Assembly (NCBI GenBank): GCA_963798085.1 | Contig: CAWCRS010000010.1 | Location: forward strand, 32,001 to 96,000 | DNA: 64,000 bases | Source: an uncultured Gemmatimonadales bacterium | GTDB taxonomy: Bacteria; Gemmatimonadota; Gemmatimonadetes; Longimicrobiales; RSA9 | Reading direction: 5' to 3' | In this document: in pieces, positions 1 to 64,000 of the stretch | How positions within the stretch are numbered: the stretch's first letter is position 1 | How the letters are laid out: each line of letters starts with the position of its first letter | Notes under the pieces: model-generated | Told to the model about the DNA's origin: nothing | What the model saw: the letters and a program-made list of their open reading frames with translations, nothing else | The model's database searches: none | Program-made: the position numbers and the translations under genes

Positions 1-2220
1 GGGAAGCCGGCCAGCAGCGCCACCATCAGCACGAGTACCTCGGCCAGATTGCAGCTGAACAGGAAGAACACGAACTTGCGGATGTTGTCGTAGATGACGC
101 GGCCTTCCTCGATGGCCGCGCTCACGGTCTCGAAACGATCATCGGTCAGCACCACGTCGGATGCCTCCCTCGCCACATCGGTGCCGCGCATTCCCATGGC
201 CACGCCGATGTTGGACCGCTTCAGCGCCGCCGCATCATTGACACCATCGCCCAGCATGGCGACGATCTCGCCGCGGCTCATGAGCGCGCCCACAATGCGC
301 AGCTTCTCTTCCGGGCTGACGCGCGCGAAGGCGCCCACCTGACCGGCGACGCGCACCAGCTCGTCATCACCCATGGCGCGCAGCTCGCGGCCGTCCAGCG
401 TGATGTCGCCCGGACGCAGCAGTCCCAGCGTGCGCGCGATCGCTTCCGCGGTGGGACGCTGATCGCCCGTGATCATCACCGTACGGATGCCTGCCTCGTG
501 GAAGCGCGCCACCGTTTCCCGCACGCCAGGCACGGCCGGATCGATCATGCCGGCCAGAGCCACGAAGACGCGGTCCCCCTCAATGCCATCCGCGATCATG
601 GCCTTTTCCGCCTCGCTCATGTCGCGGTCACTGCTCGCCCGCTCGGCGGCTGCGGGCGTGGCCGCTTCGCCTTCCGGGACCAGCCCGAGCGCCAGCACGC
701 GCAGGCCGGCCTCTGCTAACGCGCTGTTGGAAGCCCGCAGGCGCTCGCGTGCGGCCGCATCCATGGGCCGGATGCGTCCGCCCGCGAGCTGGTGCGTGGC
801 GCGCTCGACCGCACGGCCCGGATCACCCTTGAGGAAAAAAACGGAGCCGCCCTCCGGTGTGCGGTGGCGCGTCGCCATGTAGCGCCGTTCGCTCGTGAAC
901 GGCACGGCGCCCTCCTCGGGCCACCGGGCCAGCAGGTCGGCGCGCTCCATACCGGCGCGCCGGCCGGCCACCAGCAGCGCCGCTTCCGTGGGATCGCCGT
1001 GCACCACCCACTCGCCGTTCTCCACATCCAGGCGGGCGCGGTTGGCCAGCACGGCAATGCGCAGCGCGGTCGCGAGTCCATCGTGCGCCAGCGGATCATG
1101 CGCTGGCCGTTCACGCGGAACTCGCCTCCCGGCTCATAGCCGTGACCCAGCACGTCGACTTCGAGGTCGGGCAGCCAGAATCGCGTCACCGCCATCTGAC
1201 CGGCCGTCAGCGTGCCCGTCTTGTCGGTGCAGATGGTGGTCGCGGAGCCCAGCGCTTCCACCGCGGGCAGGCGCCGGATCAGCGCATTGCGCCGGGCCAT
1301 GCGGCGCAGTCCCAAACCCAGTGTTATGGTAGCGACCGCGGGCAGCCCTTCCGGCACCGCGGCAATGGCCAGCGCAATGCCGGCCTCGATCATTTCGAGC
1401 ACGGGAAACCGCGCACCACGCCCAGCAGCACAATCAGACCCGCGATGCCCAGCGTCAGCCAGACCAGGCGCCGGCCCAGTGTGTCCAGGCGTTCTTCCAG
1501 CGGCGTGCGCTCTTCGCCCAGCGCACTCGTGAGCCGGCCAATGCGGCCGACTTCGGTCTCGCCGCCCGTGGCCGTCACCACGGCCTGCGCATGACCCGCC
1601 ACCACGATCGTCGACTTGTAGATCATGCTGCTGCGGTCGGCCACGGCTGCATCGGCATCGGCGACCCGTGATGCGTTCTTTTCGGCCGCAACCGACTCAC
1701 CAGTCAGCGCGGCTTCGTTGACACGCAACTCGTCGCCGCGCAGCAGCCGGGCATCCGCGGGCACAGCCTGGCCCGCTTCCAGTACGATCACATCGCCTGG
1801 CACCAGCTCGCGCGCATCGAGAAACACCGTGCGCCCGTCGCGCAATGCCGTGGCGTGCGGCACTTCCAGACCCAGCAGCGCCTCCATGGCGCGCCGGGCG
1901 CGCAGCTCGACCAGAAAACCGATGAGCGTGTTGATCACCAGCACCGCGACAATGGCGCCGGCCTCGAGGTGATCGCTCATGACGAGTGCCAGCACGGCGG
2001 CCACGAACAGCAGCGCCACCACCACACTGCGCAGCTGCTCCCACAGGATGTACCACGCCGAGGTGGGCGGCGTGGTTTCCAGCACGTTGGGCCCGTGCTG
2101 CTGCAGGCGTGCGGCCGCTTCGCTGCGGCTCAGGCCGTCAGCCGTCGACTGCAGGCGGACCAGCACATCCTGCGCCTCCAGCGCGTGCCAGGCGGGTCGC
2201 GCCGGCTCGGTGTCACTCAC
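1..2220 (-). CDS. Cation-transporting P-type ATPase (P2A/Ca2+-like); 3' end runs off the window; two apparent frameshifts (~1400, ~1098)
   Basis: Motifs LTGES, PEGLP, DKTGTLT, GDPTE, MITGD, LGDGVND and YDNIRKF are spread over three consecutive frames (1390-2220, 716-1402, and an open frame to base 1). Confidence 0.93.
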
Positions 2221-2231
2221 AGGCTTCGTGG

Positions 2232-3710
2232 TCAGGGGGCAGCGCCGATCGCGAAAACGCGCACGGCAATGAAATACAGCGAGAAGTTGATGAGCGCGGC
2301 AAACAGCAGGTTAAGCCATATTCCGGCCTTCGCCATCATGGGAATGGTCAGCCGGCCGGTGCCGAACACCAGTGCATTGGGCGGTGTGCCCGCGGGCAGC
2401 ATGAAGGAAAGGCCGGCAGCCGCCGCCGCCGGAATCGCCAGCAGCAGCGGATCGCGACCCATGCCCACCGCCACCGCTGCAACCAGCGGCAGGAACGTGG
2501 CGGCCGTCGCCGTGTTGCTGGTCAGTTCCGTGAAGAAGATCACCACCAGGGTGACCATCAGCGTGAGGGCCAGCACAGGCCAATGTCCCAGTGCCGCCAT
2601 GCCATGACCGATGGCGTCCGACAGGCCCGTGCTCTGGATGGCGCTGGCGATGGAGAGTCCGCCGCCGAACAGCACCAGCACGGACCAGGGCATACGCTCC
2701 GCGTCGCGCCAGTGCAGTGCGAATTCGCCCCGGCGCCAGTTCACGGGAATGAGAAAGAGCAGCATGCCGCCCGTCATGCCAATGCCTGCATCGGAAACAT
2801 TGGGGAGCACGCGCTCGAGCAGTGGCTGGAGAATCCAGGCCAGCGCGGTGAGGCCGGCCACCGTGGCCACGACCTTCTCGGCGCGTGACATTGGACCCAG
2901 CGCCTCTGCCTGCCGCTCGATCATCTCGCGCGCACCCTCGATCTCGCGCGAGCCGGTGGGGTGTAACACGCGTGTCAGCAGGAGCCACGCCAGCGGCACG
3001 CCCACCAGCACAATGGGCACACCCACCAGCATCCATTGCGCGAAACCCACCTCGCGGTGATACGTCTGGGACATGAAGCCCTTCAGCAGCGCCGTGGGCG
3101 GCGTGCCGATCAGCGTGCCTACGCCGCCAATGCTGGCTGCGTAGGAAAGGCCCAGCAGCAGCGCGATGGAGAAATTGCGATGACGCTGCTTGTCGTCACC
3201 CGCGCTCTGCTCCACCGTGTGAATCACGGATGTGGCCATGGGCAGAAGCATCACGACGGTCGCCGTGTTGCTGACCCACATGCTGATGAACGCGGTGGCG
3301 GCCATGAATCCGCCCACCAGGTTGGCCGGCTTCGTGCCCACCGCGCGAATGATCGCCACCGCCAGCCTGCGATGCAGTCCCGAACTCTCCAGACCTGCAG
3401 CCAGCAGGAACCCGCCCATGAACAGATAGATCACGGGATTCGCGTAGGGCGAAGCCGCCTGTTCGATTTTCGCAATGCCGAGCGGTGGGAAGAGCACGAG
3501 CGGCAGCAGCGCGGTGGCGTAGATGGGCAGTGCTTCGGTGATCCACCAGATCGCCATGAGGCTGCCCGCGGCGGCGGTTCGCCATGCGGCGGGACTCAGC
3601 CCCGCCGGCGGATGCAGGCTCAGCATGACGATCATCACGGCCGCACCGACGAACAGGCCGGCACGCTCGTGCCTCGCCGGCCCCGTCTTCTCCGCGCTCG
3701 TTCCCGTCAC
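2232..3710 (-). CDS. DASS/SLC13 family anion:sodium symporter
   Basis: Multi-TM protein with SMWVSNTAT, IGTPP, TELTSNTAT and GTPPNA. GTG start at 3710 follows GGAGGGAG. Confidence 0.9.
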   Translation of the reverse strand: MTGTSAEKTGPARHERAGLFVGAAVMIVMLSLHPPAGLSPAAWRTAAAGSLMAIWWITEALPIYATALLPLVLFPPLGIAKIEQAASPYANPVIYLFMGGFLLAAGLESSGLHRRLAVAIIRAVGTKPANLVGGFMAATAFISMWVSNTATVVMLLPMATSVIHTVEQSAGDDKQRHRNFSIALLLGLSYAASIGGVGTLIGTPPTALLKGFMSQTYHREVGFAQWMLVGVPIVLVGVPLAWLLLTRVLHPTGSREIEGAREMIERQAEALGPMSRAEKVVATVAGLTALAWILQPLLERVLPNVSDAGIGMTGGMLLFLIPVNWRRGEFALHWRDAERMPWSVLVLFGGGLSIASAIQSTGLSDAIGHGMAALGHWPVLALTLMVTLVVIFFTELTSNTATAATFLPLVAAVAVGMGRDPLLLAIPAAAAAGLSFMLPAGTPPNALVFGTGRLTIPMMAKAGIWLNLLFAALINFSLYFIAVRVFAIGAAP

Positions 3711-3816: not shown

Positions 3817-5179
3817 ATGTCGCCCGAGAACACGCCCTGGGTCAGCGACGAGAATGCCGCGCTGCTCACCGACCTGTACGAGCTGACCATGCTGCAGGCC
3901 TACTGGCGCGAGCGCATGCATGAGGAGGCCGTGTTCAGCCTGTACGTCCGGCGCCTGCCGGCGGAACGCAATTACGTGCTGGCCTGCGGGCTGGATGATG
4001 TGCTGCGTTATCTCGAGCGCCTCCATTTCGACGCGCCCGCGCTCGATTACCTCGCCTCGCTCGGCCAGTTCCAGCCGGCGTTCCTCGACTGGCTCGCGCA
4101 TTTCCGCTTCACTGGCGATGTCTGGGCAGTCCCCGAAGGCACGCCTCTGTTCGCCGAAGAACCCGATCCTCGAGATCGTGGCGCCCCTGCCCGAGGCACA
4201 GATCGCCGAGACCTTCGTCATGAACCAGGTCCACTTCCAGACTGTTGCCGCGAGCAAGGCGGCCCGCGTGGTGCACGCCGCGCAGGGCCGCACCGTGATC
4301 GACTTCGGCCTGCGACGCATGCACGCCGCCGATGCCGGCATCAAGGGCGCGCGCGCCTTCTGGATCGCCGGCGTCGCCGGTACCAGCAATGTGCTCGCCG
4401 GCCGCATCTACGACATCCCCGTGGCCGGCACCATGGCGCACAGCTACGTGCAGGCGCATGAGCACGAGGCCGACGCCTTCCGCCAGTTCGCCGCGCTCTA
4501 TCCGCACACCACACTCCTCGTGGACACGTACGACACGCTGGCCGGCGTGCAGCGTGTGGTAGAGCTTGCGCAGGAGCTGGGTGATGCCTTCGCCATCAGC
4601 GCTGTGCGCCTCGATTCCGGTGACCTGGGCGCGCTCGCCATCGCCGCCAGGCGCATCCTGGATGATGCCGGGTTGCAGGCTGTCGAGCTGTTCGCCAGCG
4701 GTGCTCTCGACGAACATGCGATCCGCGCGCTGCTCGCGCGCGGCGCACCCATCAACGGCTTCGGTGTCGGGTCGCTCATGGGCACGTCTGCCGATGTGCC
4801 CCATCTCGACATCGCCTTCAAGCTCTCCAGCTACGCCGGCCGCGGCCGCGTCAAACTCTCTGTTGGCAAACGCATCCTGCCCGGCCGCAAGCAGGTGTTC
4901 CGCAGGGAGAACGACGGTGAGCCGGTGCGGGATGTCATTGCCCTGGCGGATGAGATGCTGGAGGGCCGGCCGCTGCTGGCGCAGGTGATGCGCCAGGGTG
5001 AACGCCTGCCCGCGGGCGTGGTCACGCTCGCCGACTCGCGCGCACTGGCGCAACGCGAGCTGTCGTCACTGCCGGAGCGCGTGCGCGATCTCACGCCCGC
5101 GCAGCCGCCCTACACCGTGATGCTGAGCGAAAAGCTGGAAGCACTCTGGCATGAGGTCTCGCGTCGCGCAGCGGATTGA
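3817..5179 (+). CDS. pncB: Nicotinate phosphoribosyltransferase; frameshift at ~4162
   Basis: LLTDLYELTM, DFGLRR, GTMAHS, LVDTYD and VRLDSGD. An extra C in gaacccgatc splits the ORF. Confidence 0.93.
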
Positions 5180-5221
5180 AGGCGACGCGTGCGCCTCCAC
5201 CTTGTCCTCGCGAATCCGGCA

Positions 5222-5860
5222 TCACACGATTCCCAGTGCTGCCGGCAGTGCGTCCAGTGAGGTTTGCGCGTACTTCGCCTGTGCGCGCACTTCTGCGCTG
5301 GCGAGACCGGCGCGATCGTGCAGGTAGACGTGCATGCCGGCATGGACGGCGCCGCCCACATCGAAAGGCGAGCCCGCTACGAAGAGCGTGCGCCGGGGCG
5401 GCGTGCCCAGCGCCTCGATGCCCGCGCGATACGCGGCCGCGGTCGGCTTGTACCAGCCGCAGCGCTCGGCGGAAACCACCGCGTTGAAAGGGACGCCCAC
5501 ACGCGCGGCCGCGCGCTCTGCCAGCGCCTCGGAGCAGTTCGTGAGCACCGCGATCGGCACATGCGCCGCCACCGCACGCAGCACGGCACCGGCCTCCGCC
5601 CACGGCTGCAGCGCATCCCACCGTGCATCCAGATCGTACGCGAGGCTGGCATCCAGCCCCGCGCGCTGCGCCGCTTCGGCGACCAGCGTCAGATAATCGC
5701 GATACCGGCCCGTGGCGTAGGTACGCTCGAGATAGGCCATTCGCCAGCGCCGCCCGGTTGCGGCATCACCGGCAATGGCGTTCCACAACGACCACGAATC
5801 CAGCAACGCGCTGAGAAGATCGAACAGCACCGCGTCGTAATGGCGAGTGTATATTTCCAC
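5222..5860 (-). CDS. HAD-superfamily hydrolase (haloacid dehalogenase type II-like)
   Basis: VLFDLLSALLD motif I, LTN, YKP and FVAGSPFD. Start uncertain (GTG at 5860). Confidence 0.82.
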   Translation of the reverse strand: MEIYTRHYDAVLFDLLSALLDSWSLWNAIAGDAATGRRWRMAYLERTYATGRYRDYLTLVAEAAQRAGLDASLAYDLDARWDALQPWAEAGAVLRAVAAHVPIAVLTNCSEALAERAAARVGVPFNAVVSAERCGWYKPTAAAYRAGIEALGTPPRRTLFVAGSPFDVGGAVHAGMHVYLHDRAGLASAEVRAQAKYAQTSLDALPAALGIV

Positions 5861-7052: not shown

Positions 7053-7449
7053 CTGACGGATTGTTTTCACACAGGGGCCACAGGGTCATCGGAGGACGGA
7101 TCTGACCCATTACTTCGGCACTCGGTCTTCGGGAGTTCACGGAGGGCGCTGCGGACGGATCAACCAACAGCAGTTTCACACAGCGGCCTCAGAGAACCAG
7201 AGGACCGATCGTGTCTGAACCTTTTTCCTGGCGGCCATGACGCGATCGGAATCGGACAAAAAGATCCACAATGCAGAGCCGGCCTGAAATCGCGGCCGAG
7301 GACGGCGCTCATCCGTGGAATTCAGTACCTGAATCCCCGCCCCTGACAACCCCGCAGCGCTCCTCAGTCCCCACACTTCGCCTCCAGAATCCGTTTCAGC
7401 AATCCGTCCTCAGTACCCCTGTGGCCTCTGTGTGAGAACAATCTGTTAG
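7053..7449. repeat. ~400-bp non-coding element with ~53-bp imperfect terminal inverted repeats (family A, MITE/REP-like)
   Basis: 7053-7105 CTGACGGATTGTTTTCACACAGGGGCCACAGGG..GAGGACGGAT matches the reverse complement of 7396-7449. A third internal copy lies at 7174-7209. Confidence 0.75.
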
Positions 7450-7487
7450 TCGGTTATCCCTTCTCTGCCCCCTCGCGCGGCGGTGCA

Positions 7488-8202: not shown

Positions 8203-10377
8203 TCAGAACCCCACGTCGAGGCTCAGCGTCAGTCGGCGCCGCGGCTCGGGTCGGAAGAAGCTGGCGTTGGTGAATTCCGCGTACAGCCGGTTGGTCAGAT
8301 TCTCCACCGCGAGGCCGATGCGCTGCGTCGTCCCGCCGCGGTGCAGCGCGAGGCTGGCGCGCACGCTGTGTGTCGTGAACGAAGGCAGCACGTCGCCCAG
8401 CGGGTTGTCCACCAGCACCACGTCCCTGCGCGGCCCGTTGTGCCGCACCTCGTACTCCGCCCAGATGCGGTTGCCGTTATCGTGATAACGCAGTGTTCCA
8501 GTGATCTTGCTGGAGAAGCTGTCACCGATCGGATTGCTGGGATCCAGCTCGTCCTGCGAGTCGATGTACGTGTAGCCGCCCAGCACGGAGAAGCCGCCCG
8601 CCACCAGCGCCTCGCCCGACAGCTCGACGCCGCGGAACAGCAGGCGATCGACGTTCACGTTCTGGTACGCCGGGAATCCCTGAATCGTGTCGCCCGTGGG
8701 CTGGATGCGGATGCCATCACGCATGCGGTTGCGGAAGGCGAAGGCTTCGACCGCGATGCGCCGGTCGCGAAAGCGCACGCCGGCATCGAAATCGAGGCTG
8801 GTCTCCGGGCGCAGATCCGGGCTGCGCACCTGGAAGCCGTTGCCCTCGGGTGTCGGTCCCTCGAAGAACCACTCGATCAGGTTGGGCGCACGGAAGGCCC
8901 GGCCCACGGTTCCCACCAGCGTGATCTGTGAGGTCAGCGCATACATCAGGTTGGCCGAGCCCACCACCGTGTTGCGCGACTTCGAGGTCAGGCCCGCCGG
9001 CACACCCTGCCCTGCCTGCGCGTTGGCATGCACGCCCTGCGCGCGTGCGCCCGCGATCAGTGTCGCGCGGCCCGCGTTCAGCTCGCTCTGCGCGAAACCG
9101 CCCACACTGCTGTATGTGGCGTCCGGGACCTGCGGTGCGGTGCTGATGTCGGTCTGTGTCGGACCGAAGCCGATCACCGACGTCACGCTCGAATCGTTGT
9201 TGGCGGAACGGTCCCGGAAGAAGTCCATGCCGTACGTGAACAGCACACCCTGCGTGGCCAGCTTCCTGGCTTCGATGCGGGTGCCAATGGTCTTGAGGTC
9301 GCTGAAGTTGTACGTGTCGATCTTCACACCCGCGCCGGGCGGCGCCTGCGGGCCGAAGCCCTGGAACAGGTTGAAGGTCAGAGTGCGCGCGTTGTCCTGC
9401 CAGTAGCCCACGACGTCGAGACGATCCACGATGGGCAGGCGCAGGTCGGCCCCGCCATAACCCATGGTTACACGCGTGAAATGCTGGTAAGGATAGCGAA
9501 TGTCGATGAGCGGCTGCTCCGGCGCGTAGGCATTGGGATCCACGAAGCCGAAGCCGGCATCTTCCGAATCGTAGCGCTCGACGCGCGTGTACAGTGAGTG
9601 ACCATCGGCCGGCTGCCAGCCCAGGCGCACGGCCGCGTTCCAGTCACGGATGCCCGTGGCCTGCACCGTGGTGGCGCTGTCGAAACGGATGCTGCCGAAG
9701 GTGCCGGAAGGCGCTCGGTAATTGCCGGCATGGCGGAGTCCGCCCGTGGCGCTGAAGTCGAACGCGCCGGAGCGACCGAAGAGCGCGGCACTGCCCCGCT
9801 GCTGATCCTCTTCCTCGCCGTAGCCGTAGCCGAGTGTGCCGTGGATGCCGTCGCGCACCGGACGGCGCGTGATGATGTTGACCACGCCGCCAATGGCGTC
9901 GGTGCCGTAGAGCACGGAAGCGGGACCGCGCACCACTTCCACACGCTCGACCTGTCCGGGATCCACCAGCGAGGGCACCTCACCGAAATCCTGCTGGCGG
10001 CGCGAATTGTTGAGGCGTACGCCATCCTCCAGCAGCAGGATGCGCTGGCCGCGCTGCCCGCGGATCACCGGCCGGGGCTGCTGTACGCCGACGCCGTTCA
10101 CGTCCAGGCCGGGCAGGTCGCGAAACAGGTCTGTCACGGTGTTAGGCCGCGTGCGCCGCAGTGTCATGCTGTCCACCACCGACACCGGCGCCGGCGTGCG
10201 GAACACCGGCCGCGGTGAGCGCGTGGCTGTCACGACCAGCGGATCTACACGGAAGACAAGCGTGTCCTTGTGGGTGGTGTCCGGCGGATTGACCTGCTGC
10301 GCTCCGCCCGGTGCGGCGCCCACCGCCACGAGCAGGATGGGAAAGGCCAGCAGCGGGCGCAGCTGTGACACTCGCAT
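8203..10377 (-). CDS. TonB-dependent outer-membrane receptor (heme/cobalamin/siderophore-like)
   Basis: Signal peptide, LVVTATR TonB box, plug motif VERVEVVRGPASVLYGTDAIGGVVNIIT, FRAPN, ENLTNRLY and terminal Phe. Confidence 0.93.
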   Translation of the reverse strand: MRVSQLRPLLAFPILLVAVGAAPGGAQQVNPPDTTHKDTLVFRVDPLVVTATRSPRPVFRTPAPVSVVDSMTLRRTRPNTVTDLFRDLPGLDVNGVGVQQPRPVIRGQRGQRILLLEDGVRLNNSRRQQDFGEVPSLVDPGQVERVEVVRGPASVLYGTDAIGGVVNIITRRPVRDGIHGTLGYGYGEEEDQQRGSAALFGRSGAFDFSATGGLRHAGNYRAPSGTFGSIRFDSATTVQATGIRDWNAAVRLGWQPADGHSLYTRVERYDSEDAGFGFVDPNAYAPEQPLIDIRYPYQHFTRVTMGYGGADLRLPIVDRLDVVGYWQDNARTLTFNLFQGFGPQAPPGAGVKIDTYNFSDLKTIGTRIEARKLATQGVLFTYGMDFFRDRSANNDSSVTSVIGFGPTQTDISTAPQVPDATYSSVGGFAQSELNAGRATLIAGARAQGVHANAQAGQGVPAGLTSKSRNTVVGSANLMYALTSQITLVGTVGRAFRAPNLIEWFFEGPTPEGNGFQVRSPDLRPETSLDFDAGVRFRDRRIAVEAFAFRNRMRDGIRIQPTGDTIQGFPAYQNVNVDRLLFRGVELSGEALVAGGFSVLGGYTYIDSQDELDPSNPIGDSFSSKITGTLRYHDNGNRIWAEYEVRHNGPRRDVVLVDNPLGDVLPSFTTHSVRASLALHRGGTTQRIGLAVENLTNRLYAEFTNASFFRPEPRRRLTLSLDVGF

Positions 10378-12969: not shown

Positions 12970-13118
12970 GCTCTCAAACGAACGGATTGCGGCTGGAACG
13001 GCAACTGCGTTTCGCTCGGGCTGGCGCTGCTCAGTTGACGCGCGGCGTTGCCGGGGCTGGCAGCCCGGAACGAATCAACGGGTGAAGGCTGGACGCGCAA
13101 CGCGCATCCAACACGGCG

Positions 13119-45528: not shown

Positions 45529-45649
45529 CTCCAGTTCCGTCAGCGGTGCAGCCCGCGCGCTGGCGCGCCCGCGAATCCGGGTTATCCTTCCCGTCATACG
45601 CAACGGAAGCTGCACACCCCCGAACCCTGGCAACCGTCGCGCGCTCCCC

Positions 45650-46270: not shown

Positions 46271-46312
46271 GCTGCGTTCTCCCCGCCATGTCGCGCTCGG
46301 TCGTGTGTGGGT

Positions 46313-48393: not shown

Positions 48394-48406
48394 CCCTTCC
48401 TCCGCA

Positions 48407-49578: not shown

Positions 49579-49619
49579 GCTTTTCGGCCTCGTGGCTGTC
49601 CCTTAACAGACTGTCAGGG

Positions 49620-49910
49620 AACGCCATTGCCGGGGCTGGTTGCGCCATGACGGACGGCGTTGCTGGCGCTGGTTGCTGGGGCTGGTTGCTCGGGAACGGA
49701 TGAACAACCGCTCGGCGCGGCACGAGGCACTGCAGCGGTTTCAAATGAGCCGTGCGCCATTCCATTCCGTTCCCCCGCAACCTGCCCAGGCAGGTTCCTG
49801 CCCGCATCCCCAGCCACGCAGTCGATCTCCGTCCCCCGGGCCAGCCCCGCGACGCTCTACAATCCGTTCCGAGCACCAGCCCCCGGCAACCAGCCCCCGC
49901 AACGCCGTGA
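49620..49910. repeat. Family B fold-back repeat element 1
   Basis: Left-arm units (C)GTTGC(C/T)GGGGCTGGTTGC..GGAACGG and a right arm of reverse-complement units CCGTTCC..GCAACCAGCCCC.GCAACGCC. Confidence 0.75.
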
Positions 49911-49917
49911 GTAACAA

Positions 49918-50739: not shown

Positions 50740-50745
50740 GAGCGC

Positions 50746-51525: not shown

Positions 51526-51793
51526 GAGTTCCGTCCGTGTGAGTGAGCGGATGAGGTGCGGCAGCCGATCGCGGCGAATCTAGACGACGTCACGCGCTCG
51601 TGTCCAATGGTCGGGCCGCCGTCCGCATGCGGGACATGCCGTCCCGCGTCCGGGGTGTGAGGGCGGCCCGCACCAACTCGCCGTACGGCGGCAGTGTGTT
51701 GCGCCGGCAGGAGTTGCGAGACACGCACGGCATGGCTCGCTTCTTCCGCTGAGAGGTGGGTTCCCCACAATGGCTCTCCACCGCCCCGGAGGC

Positions 51794-54244: not shown

Positions 54245-54357
54245 CCGACACGTTCCACTCCTCACCGGAGAACATGCCGACCGCCTGGTTGCGCGAAGAC
54301 GCGGGCGGAGGGCGTCCCTTCACGGATCGTGAACAGCCGGCGTCCGCGGCGCGGCGC

Positions 54358-54948
54358 TCAGCGTTGCGACCGCAGCCCGCTCAGATGGCGCGCGAACTGG
54401 AAACGATTCTCCAGCAGGGTGAGGTCGGTGACGAAGCCGGCCGTGCCCGTGGGCGGCGTGTACTGCGCTTCGACCTTGGCGACGATGCTCGTCAGCGCCT
54501 GCGCGGCGCTGGCGGCCTCGACCGCTGCCGCCAGCTCCTCGGGTGTGCTCACCCTCGCCGTGTGCGGTACGCCCGCGCCCGCCGCCATGGCGGCAATGTC
54601 GCTGCCCGTCGAGGTGGCCGTGGGGAACCCACCGACGCTCAGCAGGCTCTCGTTGTCGAACACGATGTGCAGCAGATTGCGCGGGCGGTAGCGCGCCAGC
54701 GTGGTGAGCCCGCCGAGGTTCATGAGCACACTCCCATCGCCATCCAGCACGATGACCGGCAGCTCCGGCCGGCACAACGCGATCCCCAGCCCCAGCGACA
54801 ATGCCAACCCCATCGCGTGCTGCAGGTAGAAGAAATTCGGCCGATGCCCCAGCGACTGCAGCTCCGCCGCCACCGCTCCCATGATGGTGACCACAATGCT
54901 GCGTTCCAGCCGGGGATAGATGGCTTGTAGCCCTTCCAGGCGTTTCAT
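54358..54948 (-). CDS. TPP-binding 2-oxoacid decarboxylase beta subunit (ComE/sulfopyruvate decarboxylase-like)
   Basis: AMGLA and the DGDGSVLMN...DN TPP motif, then GGFPT. Confidence 0.85.
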   Translation of the reverse strand: MKRLEGLQAIYPRLERSIVVTIMGAVAAELQSLGHRPNFFYLQHAMGLALSLGLGIALCRPELPVIVLDGDGSVLMNLGGLTTLARYRPRNLLHIVFDNESLLSVGGFPTATSTGSDIAAMAAGAGVPHTARVSTPEELAAAVEAASAAQALTSIVAKVEAQYTPPTGTAGFVTDLTLLENRFQFARHLSGLRSQR

Positions 54949-54984
54949 CGGGGTTTCAGCACGGTTGGTGTCGAGCAGGGTCCG

Positions 54985-55410
54985 GACGGCGTAGCTGGGG
55001 CTCGGGCTGGTTGCTCGGGAACGGATGGATCGGATGGCGTTGCCGGGGCTGAACGCCGGGGCTGGTTGCTGGTACAACGGGCAACGGACGACAGGCGTTG
55101 CCGGGGCTGGTCGCTGGCGCTGGTTGCCCGGGAACCGACCTGGCAAGTGCGAGTGACGTGATTCTCCATCGCCAACCCTGGCCGCCCGCTGCCGCACCCG
55201 GCTGGTAACCAGGCGTTAGAAAAGCTCATGGCCCTCACTCCCATTGGCCGATCCCCCTCCGCAAGCAACGCCGACCGTTCGCTCATCTGTTCCCCAGCCC
55301 ACCCGGAAACGCCTTCCAATCCCCTGCGCTGTCCCCAGCAACCAGCCCCAGCAACGCATTCGATCTGTTGCCCGCCCGAGCCCGAACCCGAGCCCCAGCC
55401 ACAGCCCCAG
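54985..55410. repeat. Family B fold-back repeat element 2, between the ComD-like and ComE-like genes
   Basis: Several GGGCTGGTTGC/CGTTGCCGGGGCTG units at 54995-55136 and the inverse CCCCAGCAACCAGCCCCAGCAACGC at 55333-55357. Confidence 0.75.
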
Positions 55411-55416
55411 AATCCG

Positions 55417-55929
55417 TTAGTCCTCCCACATGAGATCGCGGCAGAGCAACAGCGCGACGGGGCGCAGTGCGGCGTACGCGAGCGTGATGCCCTTGCGGAT
55501 GCGGTGCTCGACGTGGTCGCGGTTGTCCAGGAGTGAATACGGGATGCGCAGGGCTTCGAGCACATGCTCGGTAACACCGCCGCCTTCCGTCTGCCACGGG
55601 TCGCGCTCGCCGAATTCGCCGCGATGGCTGATCAGCAGGAGCAGCGGGATGCGATAGAGCTGCGCGCCCGACACGATGCCGTTCACCGAGGCGAGGAAGC
55701 CGTGGTTCTGCATGAGCATGGCGGAGCGCACACCCGCCAGGTGCGCGCCCATCGAGATGCCAACGCCTTCCTCTTCCTTCGCCAGGCGCACGAGGATCAT
55801 GTCCGGATCCTCTTCCGCCATGCGGATGAGATGCACCAGCCAGGTCTCCGGCAGTGCGGACGTCAACCGCACACCGCAGGCCTTCAGCGCGTCATACACG
55901 ATGCGTGAGCTGTCGACGGAGACCGGCAT
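55417..55929 (-). CDS. TPP-dependent decarboxylase alpha subunit (ComD-like)
   Basis: LPETWL, KEEEGVGI..G, MLMQNHG and SHRG..GE. Confidence 0.85.
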   Translation of the reverse strand: MPVSVDSSRIVYDALKACGVRLTSALPETWLVHLIRMAEEDPDMILVRLAKEEEGVGISMGAHLAGVRSAMLMQNHGFLASVNGIVSGAQLYRIPLLLLISHRGEFGERDPWQTEGGGVTEHVLEALRIPYSLLDNRDHVEHRIRKGITLAYAALRPVALLLCRDLMWED

Positions 55930-56010
55930 CTCTTTATGGCGCCTTTCTGCGAATGCGAGCATCCTAGCGTCGCGGCGCCTGGAAGTGCAACCGCGGGGCA
56001 GATCGGACTG

Positions 56011-56523
56011 CGTTGCCGGGGCTGGTTGCTGGGGCTCGTTGCTGGGGAACGGCATCAACGGATCTGAACTGCGTTGCCGGGGCTGGTTGCTCGGGCTGGT
56101 TGCTGGGGAACGGCCGGCACGGATTGGCACTGCGCCTACTTGGGCTGGTTGCTGGAAACCGCAGAAACGGAATGAACGGCGGTTGCTTGCGCTGGTTGCT
56201 GGAAACGGCAGAAACGGAATGAGCGGCGTTGCTTGCGCTGGTTGCCGGGAATGGCAAACAAGGAGTGAATCGCGCTTGCCGCGCGGCCCGTGCCCGGAGC
56301 GTCGGACAAGGGACTTGAACAGGCTGTTAGCGATGCAGTGTGCGCCGGCATCGTTGTCGTTTGCACGTGCGCCGTTCCCCGGCAACCAGCCCGAGCCCCA
56401 GCCCCGGCAACGTCGTTCAATTCCGTTCCGGCCGTTCCCCAGCAACCAGTCCGAGCAACCAGCCCCAGCAACGCAGTTCAGATCCGTTGATGCCGTTCCC
56501 CAGCAACCAGCCCCGGCAACGCC
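56011..56523. repeat. Family B fold-back repeat element 3 with ~100-bp near-perfect inverted arms
   Basis: 56038-56122 is the near-exact reverse complement of ~56422-56507, including GGCATCAACGGATCTGAACTGCGTTGC. Built from ~13-bp GGGGCTGGTTGCT units. Confidence 0.85.
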
Positions 56524-56601
56524 GTATCAACCCCCTTTCCGGCGCGACCTGAATCCGTCAAGCTGAAGCCTTCCATCGGCGCACTGGAGAAAAGAGGGGA
56601 C

Positions 56602-59034
56602 TTGAGAGTTGCGATCATCGGCGGTGGGCCGGCGGGGCTCTACCTGGCGCTGCTGCTGAAGCAGGCAGACGCGGCGCACGAGATCACCGTGCTGGAGCGG
56701 AATCGCGCGGATGACACGTTCGGCTGGGGCGTCGTCTTCTCGGACCAGACGCTGGACAACCTGCGGCGAGCCGATGCGGAGACCTATCGCGAGATAACCC
56801 GACATTTCGCGCACTGGGACGACATCGACATCCACGTGCGCGGCCGCACCATCACGTCCAGCGGCCACGGCTTCAGCGGCATCGCCCGCAAGCGGCTGCT
56901 GCACATCCTGCAGGAGCGCGCGCGTGCGCTGGGCGTGCGCCTGCGCTTCCGGTGCGACGTGGGGGACGAATCGCAGCTCGCGGAACTGGGCATCGTCGCC
57001 CCCGACCTGATCGTGGCCGCGGACGGCGCCAACAGCCAGGTGCGCCGCCGGCACGCCGCGCAATTCCAGACCACGGTCGACGTGCGCACGCAGGCGCACT
57101 ACGTCTGGCTGGGCACGCGGCTGCGCTTCGATGCCTTCACCTTCATCTTCGTCGAAAACGAGCATGGCGTGTTCCAGATGCATGGCTACCGCTTCGACGA
57201 CGACTGGTCCACGTTCATTGTCGAGTGTGACGATGCGTCCTGGCGCGCCGCCGGCTTCGATCGCATGGACGCGCACCAGACCGTGGGCGCCTGTGAAGTC
57301 CTGTTCGCGCGCTGGCTGCACGGCCATCCGCTGGAGAGCAACGCGACCCACCAGTCCGCCTCGCCCTGGCTGAGCTTTCCGCGCGTCACGAACGAGCACT
57401 GGTTCCATGGGCGCAACGTGCTCGTGGGCGATGCCGCGCACACCGCGCACTTCTCCATTGGTTCCGGCACCAAGCTCGCGCTCGAGGACGCCATTGTTCT
57501 CGCCCGCGAGCTGCAGGGCGTCAACGATGCGCGCGATAATGGCGCCGTGCAGGCCGCATTGCAGCGCTATCAGGACCAGCGCCGCACGGAGGCCCTGCGC
57601 CTGCAGAATGCCGCGCGCAATTCCATGGAGTGGTTCGAGAATGTGAAGCGCTACATCAACCTCGATCCCGAGCAGTTCGCCTATTCCCTGCTCACGCGCT
57701 CACAGCGCGTGAGCCACGAGAATCTCCGCCTGCGCGACCGGGAATACCTCGAAGGCGTGGAGCGCTGGTTCGCCAGCCAGGCCACCCGCCAGGCAAACGC
57801 CGCGTTAGAAGCGACTTCTGCATCCCGTCTGCATGCAGGCGATGCAGCCGACACGTCGGGGCACACCCCCGTCCCCAGCCCCAGCCCTCCCCCTCCCATG
57901 TTCACGCCGTTCCGCCTGCGCGGGCTCCTGCTGGACAACCGCGTCGTCGTTTCGCCGATGGATATGTACAGCGCGGAAGACGGCATGCCCAACGATTTCC
58001 ACCTCGTGCACCTGGGCAGCCTCGCGCTGGGCGGCGCGGCACTGCTGTTCACCGAGATGACGTGCGTCTCGCGCGAAGGTCGTATTTCACCGGGCTGCAC
58101 GGGCATGTACCTGCCGCAGCACGCAGGCGAGTGGACGCGCATCGTCGACTTCGTGCATCGCTGGTCGCCTGCGAAGCTCGCATTGCAGCTGGGACACTCC
58201 GGACGCAAAGGCTCGACGCAGCTGATGTGGGAAGCGATGGATGAGCCGCTGCCTGACGGCAACTGGGAGACCCTCGCCCCCTCGCCCATTCCCTGGACCG
58301 AGCGCAACGCCATCCCGCGCGTCATGCACCGCGCCGACATGGAACGCGTAACAGCGGAGTTCGTGCGCGCCGCGGAAATGGGCGCCGGCTGCGGCTTCGA
58401 CATGCTCGAGTTGCACTGCGCGCACGGCTACCTGCTTTCCAGCTTCCTCACGCCAGTGAGCAACCAGCGCACTGATGCGTACGGCGGCTCGCTGGAAAAC
58501 CGGCTGCGCTACCCGCTCGAGGTGCTGCGCGCACTGCGCGCGAGCTGGCCTGCCAGCCTGCCGATCTCCGTGCGCATCTCGGCCACGGACTGGCTGGACG
58601 GCGGCATCACCGGCGATGATGCGGTAGCCATGGCCAGGGCGTTCGGGCGGGCGGGCGCGGACATCATTCACGTGTCGACGGGCCAGACATCGCCTTTGTC
58701 GCGACCGGTGTACGGGCGCATGTTCCAGACGCCGTACAGCGATCGCATCCGCAACGAGACGGGCCTGCCGACCATTGCGGTGGGCAACATCACGGAGCCG
58801 GACCAGATCAATGCGATCGTGGCGGCGGGACGTGCCGACCTGTGCGCCCTGGCGCGGCCGCATCTGGCCGACCCGCACTGGACGCAACGCGCGGCGGCGG
58901 AGCTGGGCTGGACCGGGCAGTGGTGGCCATCGCCGTATCTGACCGGCAAGCGGCAGCTCGAGCGGCTGATTGCGCGCCGCCGGGAAATGGAGCAGGCCGA
59001 GCGCAGCGCCGCCGGCGAGGAGGAACGGGAATGA
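56602..59034 (+). CDS. Bifunctional flavoprotein monooxygenase/OYE reductase (2-aminobenzoyl-CoA monooxygenase/reductase, salicylyl-CoA 5-hydroxylase family)
   Basis: [17 protein letters not shown] and [16 protein letters not shown], then the OYE domain [13 protein letters not shown] and RISATDW. Confidence 0.92.
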
Positions 59035-59849
59035 ACACGGTGTTAGAGGGAAGCGGCGCCGGGCTGCCCGCTGGCCGCTTTCTCCTGGGCCGGCACGCGC
59101 TGGTCACGGGCGGCGGTCGCGGCATCGGCGCCGCCATTGCGCACGCGCTCGCGCGCGCCGGTGCGGACATCAGTCTGCTGGGCCGGAGCGAGCCCGACCT
59201 GCAGGCGGAGGCGTCCCGCCTGGCGGCGCAGCACGGCGTGAACACGGCGGCACTGCGCGCCGATGTGACTGCAGACGACAATGTCCGGTCCGCGTTCGCG
59301 GCCGCCGCGCAGCGTTTCGGCCCCGTCCAGGTTCTGGTGAACAACGCGGGTCAGGCGGAGGGCGCCCCGCTGACGCAGACGACGCGCGAGCTTTGGGACC
59401 GCATGCTGGCTGTCAATCTCACGGCCGCGTTCACGTGCGCGAAGCTGGTTCTGCCGGGCATGCTGGCGGCGGGTAGCGGCCGCATCGTGAATGTCGGCTC
59501 GACGGCGGGATTGCGCGGCGTGGCGCGCATTGCGGCGTACTCGGCCGCCAAGCACGGGCTGGTAGGCTTGACGCGCTCGCTGGCGCTGGAAGTGGCCAAA
59601 CAGGGCGTTACGGTGAACGTGGTGTGTCCGGGCTACGTGGACACCGCCATGGCGCAGCGCGCGGTGAACGCGGTAATGACCGGAACCGGCCGTTCCGCGG
59701 AGGAAGCGACGCAGCTCGTCACGCGGCCCAGCGCATTCAACCGGCTGCTCGCGCCGGAAGAGGTGGCGGGCGTCGTCGCCTGGCTCTGTTCCCCCAATGC
59801 GGCGACCGTGACCGGACAGGCCATCGTCATTGGTGGCGACGTGGTCTGA
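59031..59849 (+). CDS. Short-chain dehydrogenase/reductase
   Basis: [12 protein letters not shown] and YSAAKH. ATG overlaps the upstream stop. Confidence 0.93.
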
Positions 59850-61391
59850 TCAGCGGCCCGCCGGCTCCTCATCGAAAGCCGCATCGAACTCGTCCACCCA
59901 GGCCGTGGCGGTGCCGCCCGGCAGGCGGGGCTTCCCCTTCAGCTCCGAGTCGAAGCTGGCCAGTGCGCGCCGCGAATCCTCTGCCGCCGTGTCGCCGGTA
60001 TCATAGACAATGGCGCCCACCTGCTGCTGCTCGAGACGCAGTCTGGCGCGCATCTCATCCGCTGCCGCGAGCGCGGCGCGCAGCTGGGGAAAGCGATAAC
60101 GCAGCGTACCATCGTCCTCCGCCTCGACGCCGGCATCGAACTCCACGGCCAGCCGCTGCAGCTCCTCATTAACTGTCTGTTCCGTGAGGTTCGGATCTTC
60201 CAGCGCCTTGCGCGCCCATGCGGTGGCGCCCGCCACACTGGTGGCATGGCCTTCGATGCCCGCTTCCGAGATCACGCCCAGCAGCACCTTGCGCAGGTTC
60301 TCGCGCGAACGCGCGGCATTGGCGCGGCGCAGTGCGGCCCGCCGGAACAGTGGAACGGCGAAGAAGATGGCGCTGAACGTGAGCGGCACCCACACGAGGA
60401 ATCCCCATGCCAGCGGACCCTCCAGGCCCAGCCGCGGGAAGATGAACAACGGCGAGGTCGCCGCGGCGACGAGATTGAAGCCGTTCAGCCCGGCTATGAG
60501 CGCATCGGTTGCCGCCTTGTTGCCGGTGGCGGCCCGGGCACGCTCGAGTCGACGCCAGGCAGGCTCTGCCGGACGCGCGTGCACGCGCCCGTGCGCGCTC
60601 AGCAGCAGTTCCGGGAACACATAGGCCAGCTCGCCCTTCTCCGAGACGCGCACATCCCCATTGAACGCGCTCACCAGCCTGGCCATTTCTTCCGCGGCCT
60701 GTGCGCTGGTCATGCCCGTGTGCTGCACCAGCTCCGTCGTGGTGATCACGCCGCGGCGGCTGCGAATCATCTCGACCAGCGCGCGGTCGCGCGCCGCCGG
60801 TGTGACGTGCGGCTCATCCGGACCGAACACGAAGGCAAACACCTTCTTGTAGAACGGCACTTTCGTGCCTCGCCGCTGCTCGTGGCGGTATCCGTAGTAG
60901 GGCCGCCCATAGCGCCAGTCGCGTGTCCAGAACAGATACCAGATCCAGAACGTGGGAATGCGCATGCCGCGGCTGCTGCGCCGGTTGCCGCCGCCCTGGC
61001 GGTTGCCGTTGCCGGAGAGCACGGCCATCATGGCAGCGACGAGCAGCGCCACGAAGACCACGAAGTAGACGACGAGCATCACGACGATCCACGCCTTGAA
61101 CGCGCCCGTGAGGAATCGCTTCGCGCCTCGCTTGAAGCGCGACCACCACGATTCCCGGTCGCGCCGCATCAGCTTCGGTTCGAATTCGTAGACCAGGTCG
61201 CCCTTGTCGCTTACTGCGAGGTGGCCGCGGTAAGTGCCCAGCAGCTCGCGCAACGTCTGCTCGGTCTGCTCGCGCGGCAGACCCGTTTCGGCGACGACAT
61301 CGCCCACGGTCGCGCGTCCGCGCAGATTGCGCAGCGCACGCAGCACCGGTGTCTCTTCCAGGACGTCGGGTCGTTCGACTACGGTTTCCAT
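59850..61391 (-). CDS. Hypothetical membrane protein resembling the plant/cyanobacterial At5g03900-like family
   Basis: ATVGDV..TGL...GHLAVSDKGDLVYEF, VFAFVFGPD and repeated G-x-V-S-x-x-G-x-L-x-Y-x-F. Family assignment is from recall, not a search. Confidence 0.7.
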   Translation of the reverse strand: METVVERPDVLEETPVLRALRNLRGRATVGDVVAETGLPREQTEQTLRELLGTYRGHLAVSDKGDLVYEFEPKLMRRDRESWWSRFKRGAKRFLTGAFKAWIVVMLVVYFVVFVALLVAAMMAVLSGNGNRQGGGNRRSSRGMRIPTFWIWYLFWTRDWRYGRPYYGYRHEQRRGTKVPFYKKVFAFVFGPDEPHVTPAARDRALVEMIRSRRGVITTTELVQHTGMTSAQAAEEMARLVSAFNGDVRVSEKGELAYVFPELLLSAHGRVHARPAEPAWRRLERARAATGNKAATDALIAGLNGFNLVAAATSPLFIFPRLGLEGPLAWGFLVWVPLTFSAIFFAVPLFRRAALRRANAARSRENLRKVLLGVISEAGIEGHATSVAGATAWARKALEDPNLTEQTVNEELQRLAVEFDAGVEAEDDGTLRYRFPQLRAALAAADEMRARLRLEQQQVGAIVYDTGDTAAEDSRRALASFDSELKGKPRLPGGTATAWVDEFDAAFDEEPAGR

Positions 61392-61657
61392 CCGCTCACT
61401 CCGTGCTCCTCGAGTGCAGTGTCGTACCGCGTGCTTTTTTCTCTGGCGGCCGAGCGACACAGCCCTGTTCCATACGTCCGGATACCCCGAATGGTTCGCG
61501 CGGCGCGTGAATCCGGGCGGATTCGATCACGGTTCCGCGACGCTGCAGCCCCCGCGACTTGACCCCGGCCCCGGCTTGCGGCACTCTGCACGCCTCTCGC
61601 GCGCCGCGTCGGGGAGAGCGCCCCGCCCGGTGCACCACCGTCCGGAGATAACGCGTC

Positions 61658-62552: not shown

Positions 62553-62559
62553 GGCCGTC

Positions 62560-64000
62560 GTGTTCCGCAACATCTTCGGCTTCGAGCTGCGCTACCACAC
62601 GCGCTCCGCACTGTTCTGGCTGGGCTCGCTGCTCTTCTTCCTCATCATCTTCGGTGCCGTAACCAGCGATTTCGTGCAGGTGGGCGGGGCCATTGGCAAC
62701 GTCAACCGCAACTCGCCCTACGTGATCCTGCTGTTCATGGCGTTCGCCAGTGTGGCCAGCGTATTCGTGACCACAGCCTTCGTGGCCGGCGCGGTACTGC
62801 GCGACGAGGAGTTCCGCACGCAGGAGATCCTGTACGCCACGCGTGTCACCCGCATCGCCTACGTGTTCGGGCGATTCACGGGCGCCTACAGCGCGGCGCT
62901 GCTCATGGCCGCCGCGGTGATTCCCGCGATCGTGATCGGCAGTCTGATGCCGTGGCTCGAGCCGGAGCGCGTGGGCCCGTTCCTGTGGCAGCCCTACGTC
63001 TGGGGCATGCTGGTGATGGTCGTGCCTAACATGCTGCTCATGAGCGCGCTGTTCTTCGGCCTGGCCACGCTCACGCGCAGCCTGATGTACACGTACGTGG
63101 GGCTGGTGGGCCTCTTCGTCGGCTACGGCCTGGCCGGCAGCTTCGTGCGCAACCTCGACAAGCAGGGCATCGCCACACTGCTGGACCCGTTCGGCGGTGC
63201 ATCGCTCGGCCTGGTCACCAAGTACTGGACCACGGTCGAGCGCAACACGCTGGTGCCGCCCCTGTCCGGCGCCATCCTGTATAACCGGCTGCTCTGGCTG
63301 GGCGTGTCGCTCGCCATCCTGGCGCTCACGTACAACCGCTTCTCGTTCTCGGTGTCCCGCGCGCGGCACAGCAGGCGGTCGCCCGAAGCCGCCGGGCAGG
63401 CGGTGCTGCCCATTGTCGCACCGGTGCGGCCGGCGGCGGCGCCGGCCACGGCAGCGAGGTCCTTCGCCGGCGCTGCGCGCCGGCGCGCATTCCTGCATCT
63501 CACGCTCATGGAGACCCGGCGCGTCGTGCGCAGCCTGCCGTTCCTGATCATCCTCGCCTTCGGCGTGCTCAACGTGCTGGGCTCGGCATCAGCGCTGGAT
63601 GAGCAGCGCGGTACGCCCATCTATCCGGTGACGCACGTAATGCTCGACGCGAACGCCTCTGCTTTCCTGTTTTTTGTATTCATCATCCTCGTGCTCTATG
63701 CGGGCGAGCTGGTCTGGCGCGATCGCGGCAGCAACACCGCCGATGTGATCGATGCCCTGCCCATCTCGAACCTGCTGTTATGGAGCTCCAGGCTGGTCGC
63801 CCTGCTGAGCGTCGTCGTGCTGGTGCTCTGCATCGGCATTGCGGCGGGCATCGGCTTCCAGGCCTGGCATGGCTATACCCACTTCGAGCTGCCACTGTAC
63901 TTCAAGGGCATGTTCCTGGTGAACGGCATCCCGTTCCTGCAGCTCGCCGTCCTCGCCTTCTTCATCCAGGTGGTGACCGGCAACAAATACATGGGCTTCC
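62560..64000 (+). CDS. ABC-2 type permease, likely the N-terminus of a permease/M1-aminopeptidase fusion; runs off the window
   Basis: FRNIFGFELRY, NVNRNSPY, LLDPFG, WT..ERN, NRLLW and YAGELVWRDR. The peptidase part is not visible. Confidence 0.8.
   Translation, partial: MFRNIFGFELRYHTRSALFWLGSLLFFLIIFGAVTSDFVQVGGAIGNVNRNSPYVILLFMAFASVASVFVTTAFVAGAVLRDEEFRTQEILYATRVTRIAYVFGRFTGAYSAALLMAAAVIPAIVIGSLMPWLEPERVGPFLWQPYVWGMLVMVVPNMLLMSALFFGLATLTRSLMYTYVGLVGLFVGYGLAGSFVRNLDKQGIATLLDPFGGASLGLVTKYWTTVERNTLVPPLSGAILYNRLLWLGVSLAILALTYNRFSFSVSRARHSRRSPEAAGQAVLPIVAPVRPAAAPATAARSFAGAARRRAFLHLTLMETRRVVRSLPFLIILAFGVLNVLGSASALDEQRGTPIYPVTHVMLDANASAFLFFVFIILVLYAGELVWRDRGSNTADVIDALPISNLLLWSSRLVALLSVVVLVLCIGIAAGIGFQAWHGYTHFELPLYFKGMFLVNGIPFLQLAVLAFFIQVVTGNKYMGF

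Follow-up and report, generated by a model that had tools for sequence, protein, structure and literature searches.

An iterated TAAC-N5-GTTA palindrome in the genes of a Gemmatimonadota bacterium and a candidate helix-turn-helix reader

The dimeric proteins MatP, Noc and SlmA act on dispersed palindromes (matS, NBS and SBS, respectively), which number in the tens and show a terminus bias. Integron sites are built from RYYYAAC/GTTRRRY boxes at canonical spacers, LysR-type regulators have a T-N11-A box, and the regulator PraR is presumably an XRE-type protein. The highly iterated palindromes (HIPs) of cyanobacteria, HIP1 (GCGATCGC) and the alternative HIPs, are contiguous, mostly GC-rich 5-8-mers at 1000-2000 per Mb with a link to methylases; for these words, no binding protein has been detected (PMC13756078, PMC4390886). 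A role in chromosome structure has been proposed (PMC5861425, PMC13756078). The uptake signal sequences (USS) and DNA uptake sequences (DUS) of Pasteurellaceae and Neisseria lie by the thousand in coding frames, skew peptides and are few in islands (PMC7811141, PMC2817400). Here we describe a spaced palindrome, TAAC-N5-GTTA, in an uncultured Gemmatimonadales soil bacterium (GCA_963798085.1, hereafter G000; 6.23 Mb, 12 contigs, 67% GC, 90% complete), which was noticed in a 64,000-nucleotide stretch, G000:C10:32001-96000, referred to as the window. A real, strong and apparently undescribed member of the class of words iterated within genes, the motif works like HIP1 and the uptake sequences and belongs to neither.

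Like the HIPs, it is a palindrome over-represented genome-wide in coding DNA and gained by substitution without indels, whereas it is not a contiguous GC-rich 5-8-mer: it is AT-rich, spaced by 5 or 6 bp and graded, has about 650 excess sites per Mb, avoids promoters and comes with a candidate reader. In USS and DUS the core is non-palindromic, copies often form close pairs and the frames used have common codons; the motif of G000 is instead symmetric and free of strand bias, avoids close pairs and forces rare codons. The operators of PcaQ (LysR), ATAAC-N5-GTTAT (PMC3572157), and of PraR, CAAC-N5-GTTG (PMC5527310), share its AAC-N5-GTT geometry for a helix-turn-helix (HTH) dimer, but they are promoter operators, whereas G000 has thousands of sites, most of them within genes and with promoters avoided. 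Integron attC and attI simple sites also have AAC/GTT arms 5-6 bp apart, and the ends of attC in G000 match the motif; in integrons, however, sites are paired within a folding attC and mark cassette borders, whereas the sites of G000 are single, unpaired, depleted of close pairs, without hairpin signature and independent of the presence of an integrase. With matS, NBS and SBS the likeness would lie in dimers, dispersed palindromes and a chromosome-level role, the differences in the thousands of sites and the lack of terminus bias. In a literature search covering mainly open-access papers, we found no account of the motif as a genome-wide coding signal, although the supplementary motif table of PMC5217627 could list a similar case.

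Enrichment, anatomy and origin of the sites

Within the window, 29 strand matches of the motif were observed, compared with a mean of 0.55 (maximum 3) in 100 dinucleotide shuffles, and 5 full TAAC-N5-GTTA palindromes, compared with 0.03. Across G000, full palindromes number 322 at N5, 83 at N6 and only 1-5 at every other spacer from 0 to 20, and this k=5-specific peak supports the proposal of the first-pass annotation, made on the window alone, that the motif is selected or driven genome-wide. Counts of the either-arm form are 1509 at N5, 345 at N6 and 39-97 at other spacers. The N5 peak persists in the codon-shuffle test which that annotation had suggested, with 1139 of the 1509 sites inside called genes against 98-112 in 5 synonymous-codon shuffles; gene classes come from our own hexamer gene caller (5110 genes, 80% coding). 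Measured against control distances that keep the frame, about 3,150 sites are in excess at N5 and about 940 at N6, which with degenerate arms included gives about 4,100 sites or about 650 per Mb. Stratified by mismatches in the two arms, N5 counts against control are 322 vs 2 (0/0), 2040 vs 158 (0/1) and 3387 vs 2442 (1/1), the 0/2 classes being excluded from the excess because shifted registers contaminate them.

The arms are graded in the manner of a protein-binding matrix. Opposite a TAAC arm, the partner is enriched 184x when it is TAAC, 80x for TAAT, 39x for AAAC, 18x for CAAC, 12x for TGAC and 10x for GAAC, with a preference for A/T at the inner side. In the non-repeat intergenic flanks, C is preferred at -1 (0.50 vs 0.26 for unpaired TAAC) and T at -2 and -3, so that the half-site is (Y)(Y)C-TAAC(A), with a spacer of 5 and less often 6. 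We detected no depletion of a precise precursor word in G000, no coding-strand or replication-strand bias of the wobble-compatible variants, both orientations being equally common, and no spacer complementarity, the spacer ends neither pairing nor covarying. The lack of strand bias and the unpaired spacer place the signal in double-stranded DNA and rule out a reading as RNA or as a single-strand hairpin; the motif is thus a real, symmetric and degenerate site in double-stranded DNA. The N6 form, the graded arm tolerance and the spatial rules described below go beyond what the first-pass annotation had noted. Two other palindromes are depleted in G000, namely GCA-N7-TGC (5064 vs 6386) and GAA-N3-TTC (1888 vs 2592).

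The sites have a marked effect on codon usage, and 344 of the 1054 TTA codons of G000 lie within them. Among leucines in the T-AAC-N5-G context (n=335), TTA takes 38.8% and TTG 37.3%, compared with 0.58% and 3.6% overall, corresponding by our own arithmetic to a shift of about 6 in the log-odds of TTA over CTG; the effect is gone one codon further off, and the congener G001 uses TTA in 0 of 62 similar contexts. Peptides are skewed as well, with 6229 occurrences of N-x-x-[LF] vs 5009-5588. When 229 orthologous gene pairs of G000 and G001 were compared (690 kb fetched of about 5 Mb), 74 sites differed from their G001 counterparts by 1-6 substitutions of all types, a gap being near in 4 of the 74, and amino-acid identity was 66% at arm codons and 69% in the flanks; G001, identical at 52% of third positions, is too distant to serve as ancestor. 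No integrase insertion scars were seen at sites in these pairs. The sites have therefore been fixed through point substitutions wherever coding permits, with reading frames kept.

The motif is restricted to a lineage and to one species of its genus. TAAC-N5-GTTA occurs at most 5 times in each of 40 relatives (once in G001) and at most 31 times in 400 genomes of the class (control 61), and among all 73 genomes of the family it occurs 322 times in G000, 46 times in G449 and at most 13 times in the others. Upon relaxing the word to TAMY-N5-RKTA, we read from the table that 3 of 401 genomes of the order exceed the reversed control, G000, G449 and G026, the results for the latter two resting on unpublished genomes. 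G026 (93 vs control 38) nevertheless shows no N5 peak in 302 kb (17 vs 7-19), with contigs partly picked for known sites, and has no member of the candidate family described below, which leaves G000 and G449 only. In G449 the motif is R-TA[A/C][C/T]-N5-[G/A][T/G]TA-Y (in 709 kb, 110 at N5 compared with 6-18 for the remaining spacers), a wider set of 239 sites has 201 inside genes, and valine is encoded by GTA in 25 of 37 site contexts vs 7% overall; the motif thus differs by lineage, being TAAC in G000 and TA[A/C][C/T] in G449.

Spacing, promoters and the proposed role

We investigated the spacing of sites in a stricter set of 3263. Compared with random placement, pair density rises from 0.17 below 40 bp through 0.3-0.4 (40-150 bp) and 0.6-0.8 (150-400 bp) to about 1 past 500-700 bp, and two control words with enough pairs (several hundred to 900 copies) show no close-range hole. 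The same is seen in codon choice, where the use of TTR climbs from 1 of 59 cases with another site closer than 50 bp, through 29 of 145 with one at 200-300 bp, to 102 of 253 with one at 1-1.5 kb, with a fitted decay of about 200 bp when context is fixed. Short tandem arrays at C9:280495-280762 and C3:432340-432535, of 3-4 sites each and 60-100 bp apart, are exceptions to this repulsion. No helical phasing between neighbouring sites was found, and 308 of the 3263 sites lie within any repeat, many of these being paralogous permease genes.

Upon partitioning the genome by gene orientation, we find that sites per kb are most frequent between convergent genes (2.31), followed by tandem gaps (1.02), coding sequence (0.49) and divergent gaps (0.24). 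Relative to operon-internal genes, density falls to 0.59 at 100-600 bp in genes that a divergent promoter heads (p 1e-4) and to 0.54 at the ends of genes that precede a tandem promoter gap (p 3e-5). At fixed composition, the site-forming codon is chosen in 73 of 292 cases in the first 400 bp of promoter-headed genes, less often than in gene interiors (201 of 480, p 2e-6) or in operon-internal genes (74 of 198, p 0.004). Density peaks just after stop codons, which may reflect that stop codons supply half an arm. The ribosomal-protein cluster has 12 sites vs 12.6 expected, low-GC islands are poor in sites, and density is even across contigs, with no ori/ter bias detected (50-kb bins at the dif-like C7:1667617 hold 27, 21 and 14 sites, full bins in other places 11-39); standard patterns were used for dif, parS and KOPS. 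A site is therefore strongly favoured, its advantage wanes with a neighbour within a few hundred bases, and it is disfavoured near promoters.

We consider it likely that the sites anchor an abundant intracellular homodimer whose effect, be it local compaction, coating or silencing, reaches a few hundred bases and is useful in gene bodies and convergent gaps and harmful at promoters; the benefit may lie in compaction, in the silencing of stray intragenic transcription or in the handling of supercoils. Should this dimer be the basic-tailed protein described below, its HTH head would read the palindrome and, by analogy with histone-H1-like tails, which grip flanking DNA, its tail rich in Lys, Arg, Ala and Pro would hold a few hundred bases of it. 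A second site nearby would add little, giving repulsion, and a site near a promoter would cost transcription, giving avoidance. Three mechanisms had been offered for the motif at the outset. The graded arms, the promoter avoidance, the repulsion and the candidate homodimeric HTH protein make a site for a chromosome-organising protein the best fit among them, while a methylation-coupled HIP1-like word is disfavoured by the graded arms and the island location of the methylases found in the two families searched, and an uptake or recombination signal leaves the promoter avoidance unexplained.

The candidate reader and its alternatives

That the reader is a basic-tailed member of a small XRE-like HTH family seems to us about an even bet. 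Its G000 genes, at C5:764186-764500 and, as paralogues, at C2:243771-244088 and C2:275765-276088, stood out by an HTH pattern among 87 small basic proteins screened in our own gene calls, and by profile search G000 has six family members, four of them with basic tails. The family has 666 representatives at 50% identity and is present in 57 of the 401 order genomes, and its Atlas taxa agree with the Gemmatimonadota and Longimicrobiales labels. The AlphaFold model of the candidate (pLDDT 88.6) has helices at residues 3-11, 16-23, 27-33 and 49-81 followed by a loose tail. Prediction supports a homodimer, with a score of 0.79 vs 0.00 for the best control, contacts agreeing by at least 98% between runs and a partner pLDDT of 81-82; 20 of 30 solved homodimers attained this mark, as did 1 of 23 monomers. 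The Atlas row for the candidate gives HTH_3 43% at 0.89, Pfam returned no match, VIA-align returned generic helical matches only (Z at most 5.7), PHROGs matches were weak, and we found no account of the protein family in the literature searched.

Of the 43 family loci that were read, most encode short proteins, 73-95 residues long and lacking a basic tail. Among these short members, many have a 6-N6-6 palindrome about 45-65 bp before their own start, with arms that follow the recognition helix; the palindromes were read partly by eye, the top palindrome of the script not always being the one used. The pairs are SHGLLRQ with GTTTAC-N6-GTAAAC, SIQTIRQ or SVQSIRQ with GTCTAT-N6-ATAGAC, SVNSIER with GTCAGT-N6-CCTGAC, and SYGL[VI]RQ with GCTGAC or GCTAGC-N6-GTTAGC. 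The operators of the last group, C-TGAC-N6-GTTA-G (L154) and C-TAGC-N6-GTTA-G (L220), equal the N6 consensus of G000 including its C/G flanks. By eye, integrase-like genes adjoin three short members (L157, L160 and L161), on which ground the short members look like repressors of integrative elements, and the tailed form may have been domesticated from this repressor-like family. The short homologues (L154-L173, L216-L235) have about 75 residues, a visible helix-to-operator code and a conserved divergent leader, with up to 12 copies in G032, and form a natural set for the study of specificity change.

The tailed form was seen in 3 of the 401 order genomes, namely G000, G449 (one) and G023 (two), a tailed call being a match past residue 90 without a stop; in three other genomes matches reached residues 82-88. 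The helices of the grouped tailed proteins of G000, THGFLRL, SHGVLRL and SPGVLAL, resemble the xHG/xYG group, and in a tree of 79 columns, with many forks open and one mis-extended row left out, eight tailed rows group with a short G000 paralogue on C8 (91/98). The C5 gene of G000 has TAAC-N5-GTTT at -51, and the tailed gene of G449 has a site 38 bp upstream. That both motif genomes are among the three tailed ones of 73 has a probability of about 0.001 by chance, by our own post hoc arithmetic and with kin that are not independent. The tailed genes L167 (G000) and L169 (G449) both lie near a similar cold-shock protein gene.

Several observations weigh against this account. The link to the candidate is post hoc, coming from the 87-protein screen rather than from a comprehensive survey of DNA-binding proteins. 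Despite its two tailed homologues, G023 shows no motif enrichment (25 vs control 192 genome-wide, none in 400 kb, and for AAC-N5-GTT 65 vs 39-64), and G028 and G032 have short members with a matching operator and likewise no enrichment. A clear upstream site is found for only one of the three grouped tailed paralogues of G000, the promoter site of G449 has C where its own consensus favours a purine, and the short members use N6, whereas the genome uses mostly N5. Structural matches are weak, the best Foldseek rows being XRE proteins at E 0.3-0.6 and the match to phage 186 CII having E 0.04. Repulsion and promoter avoidance were not detected in G449, where counts are small (239 sites in 709 kb). 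Finally, no relative close enough for a direct look at site conservation turned up, the 11 GTDB and 80 metagenome loci being no more than 60% identical (11 N5 sites in 907 kb).

All of the spatial evidence is independent of the candidate, G023 breaks the link to it, and PcaQ and PraR show that sites of the same shape occur in other protein families, which together favour another dimeric protein reading the same nucleoid-role site. We hold this to be unlikely, though worth keeping in view: it would make the co-occurrence with the tailed family and the sites at its own promoters a matter of chance. A LysR reader is rejected, with no HTH_1 protein in G000 (90% complete) and the lowest site density in divergent gaps. 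ParB, which is single and has a canonical parS, HU/IHF, whose number is as in relatives, an AT-hook protein found in 27 of 41 relatives, the Y1 transposase and the Pfam HTH_3 proteins are rejected likewise, not being specific to G000. The AT-hook-like protein (G000:C5:37463-37951 and C5:149536; 162 residues, RGRP plus a basic linker) has no Pfam match above the cut-off and is possibly a lineage-wide nucleoid protein.

Improbable to a somewhat greater degree is a molecular drive through DNA uptake and recombination, of the USS/DUS or HIP1 kind and without benefit to the cell, in which DNA fragments with a site would be taken up or recombined preferentially. Much would agree with it, including a similar density, the origin by point substitution, the frame bias, the peptide skew, the scarcity in low-GC islands and the diminishing returns, together with the presence of ComEC in G000 and the report that HIP1 raises transformation (PMC13756078). 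ComEC, however, is found in each of the 5 genomes examined, of which 4 lack the motif, and the depletion seen around promoters at fixed composition, hundreds of bases in extent, implies intracellular binding. Additionally, the 200-500 bp range is short compared with the multi-kb recombination tracts of H. influenzae, in which 23% of USS lie within 100 bp of another (PMC7811141).

Still less probable, and in our view very unlikely, is that the sites are simple sites of an integron integrase (AAC...GTT, 5-6 bp spacer), bound by IntI or by an I2-less recombinase. G000 has both enzymes (IntI 409.6 bits, cut-off 265; I2-less recombinase 219.7 bits), its single canonical attC ends in TAAC-N5-GTTG and GAAC-N6-GTTA, about 43 attC-like repeats end in a matching site, the intergenic flanks lean to Y-Y-C before TAAC, and the AAC/GTT triplet is the integron core (PMC4792948, PMC4889954). 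The likeness is striking but breaks down in the distribution: IntI is above the cut-off in 8 of 41 genomes and the motif is in G000 alone, with 7 IntI-bearing relatives lacking it; G010 and G013 have I2-less integrases and arrays without the motif, and G449 has the motif with only weak, Xer-level SAM_4 matches. The sites carry no insertion scars, and genomic attG sites require only GWT (10.1101/2022.09.11.507474). The canonical IntI lies with its one canonical attC among toxin-antitoxin-like small genes at G000:C1:447332-453099. The attC-like repeats (136-147 bp, left spacer 9, right 6) lie beside the I2-less IntI-like recombinase, at C2:361k-445k, C12:1-9030, C3:1095k-1100k and C1:476k-482k, and G010 (three loci) and G013 have the same attC-like kind with spacers 8/7.

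A methylation- or repair-driven ratchet, as proposed for HIP1, is very unlikely too, and marginally more so. HIP1 spreads by substitution with deviations at its outer bases (PMC4390886, PMC13756078), whereas here the arms are graded, no precise precursor is depleted and all substitution types occur at sites. The methylases found, a Type III Mod and a split Type I HsdM, are in low-GC islands poor in sites, and no cognate methylase of the core was among the PF01555 and PF02384 hits, the C5 and Dam-type families being outside the search. The islands are a Type III restriction-modification island with a Fic gene (G000:C8:328243-337430) and a fragmented Type I system (G000:C3:931k-939k), both of low GC and with few sites.

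A gene caller that by construction allows no in-frame stop inside a gene makes the stops overlapping sites the real test for premature ones. A basecalling or assembly artefact can be dismissed as scarcely credible: frameshifts in the assembly (the split ATPase of the window) and the absence of the motif from the congener G001 speak for it, but a coding-like open frame follows 0 of 100 stops that overlap a site vs 148 of 4394 other stops, changes are coordinated on both arms and synonymous or conservative, a related motif is present in G449, and a contig (53003-53427) of run X1, possibly the source sample, runs across the palindrome at 53266 without a gap and with 1 other letter, its place not listed, in 425. 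Runs X2 and X3 share almost no words with G000 and are hence uninformative.

Sites of the window and meaning of the motif

Each of the 24 sites and 5 full palindromes that the first-pass annotation had listed in the window was found where claimed, and its codon examples hold up, with ITLGL encoded in the P-type ATPase, CVTACY in the gene resembling ActB and TTA used twice in glgX; five N6 sites, at 16731-16744, 37709-37722, 45491-45504, 50565-50578 and 58349-58362, were absent from its list. The P-type ATPase, broken at 716-2220 across three reading frames, probably by assembly frameshifts, has N5 sites at 717-729 (TAAC/GTTG; C-terminal piece, ASNSALA) and 1314-1326 (AAAC/GTTA; middle piece, ITLGL). 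Further N5 sites lie at 2301-2313 in the gene at 2232-3710(-) (WLNLLFA), in intergenic DNA at 7436-7448, at 8486-8498 in a TonB-dependent receptor gene that also holds the full palindrome at 9458-9470, and at 13109-13121, overlapping the end of a cysteine desulfurase-like gene. In glgX, the sites at 19316-19328 and 20771-20783 each use TTA for a leucine encoded by CTG and CTT, respectively, in the G001 orthologue. A malQ-like gene (21273-21285) and the gene at 27248-28354(-) (27665-27677) follow, and the full palindrome at 39888-39900 lies in an ActB/QrcC-like Fe-S gene, encoding CVTACY where G001 has CITACY without a site.

The second part of the window has sites in a gene of the benzoate-CoA ligase family (47008-47020 and the full palindrome at 48067-48079), at 49912-49924, overlapping a gene end directly past a family B arm, and in the genes at 49918-50739(-), which holds the N6 site at 50565, and 50746-51525(-) (50872-50884). 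The full palindrome at 53266-53278 is in an ADOP permease gene. Two inverted-arm elements of repeat family B contain intergenic sites at their centres, that at 55004-55347 the full palindrome 55206-55218 in its unique centre and that at 56019-56512 the N5 site 56317-56329. The remaining N5 sites are at 57795-57807 in a salicylyl-CoA 5-hydroxylase gene (leucine as TTA), 59033-59045 at the junction of two overlapping genes, 59598-59610 in an SDR oxidoreductase gene, 60170-60182 in the gene at 59850-61391(-), and 63768-63780, beyond our gene calls. Genome-wide, 21 of 32 inverted family B elements have a site in the centre, and their centres carry 25 sites in 6.4 kb, a density that fits that of unconstrained DNA between gene ends. 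In the window, a site at the end of a family A repeat was seen only at 7436, where it adjoins a copy (7401-7436) of repeat D12. The region 44300-61400 interleaves two loci, each of which is unbroken and placed apart from the other in G001 (C35, C23, C148). Elsewhere in G000, C7:200640-208346 holds a CRISPR array of 75 repeats, which we take to be type I-G-like, and at C5:865569-872753 a gene of 2394 residues with a SpvB/Tc-type-like start adjoins, by eye, a tyrosine recombinase.

Why HIP1-like words accumulate in genes has been open for thirty years, and no HIP1 binding protein has been found (PMC13756078). G000 offers a small, predicted-dimeric and easily expressed candidate together with a predicted operator, and the case adds a second genome with a shifted motif and helix as well as a negative control genome; both force and reach are quantified, with a log-odds of about 6 for TTA over CTG and a decay of about 200 bp. 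Tentatively, and with slightly less than even confidence, we suggest that a repressor of an integrative element was domesticated with an H1-like tail into a sequence-directed chromatin protein, which would have rewritten about a third of the TTA codons and biased proteins, and whose evenly spaced, promoter-sparing code would have changed between lineages along with the recognition helix. If this is true, codon usage can bear the imprint of nucleoid proteins, chromatin can be recruited from the repressors of mobile elements, and G000 and G449 would represent a case of protein-driven, genome-wide motif turnover in bacteria within one genus.

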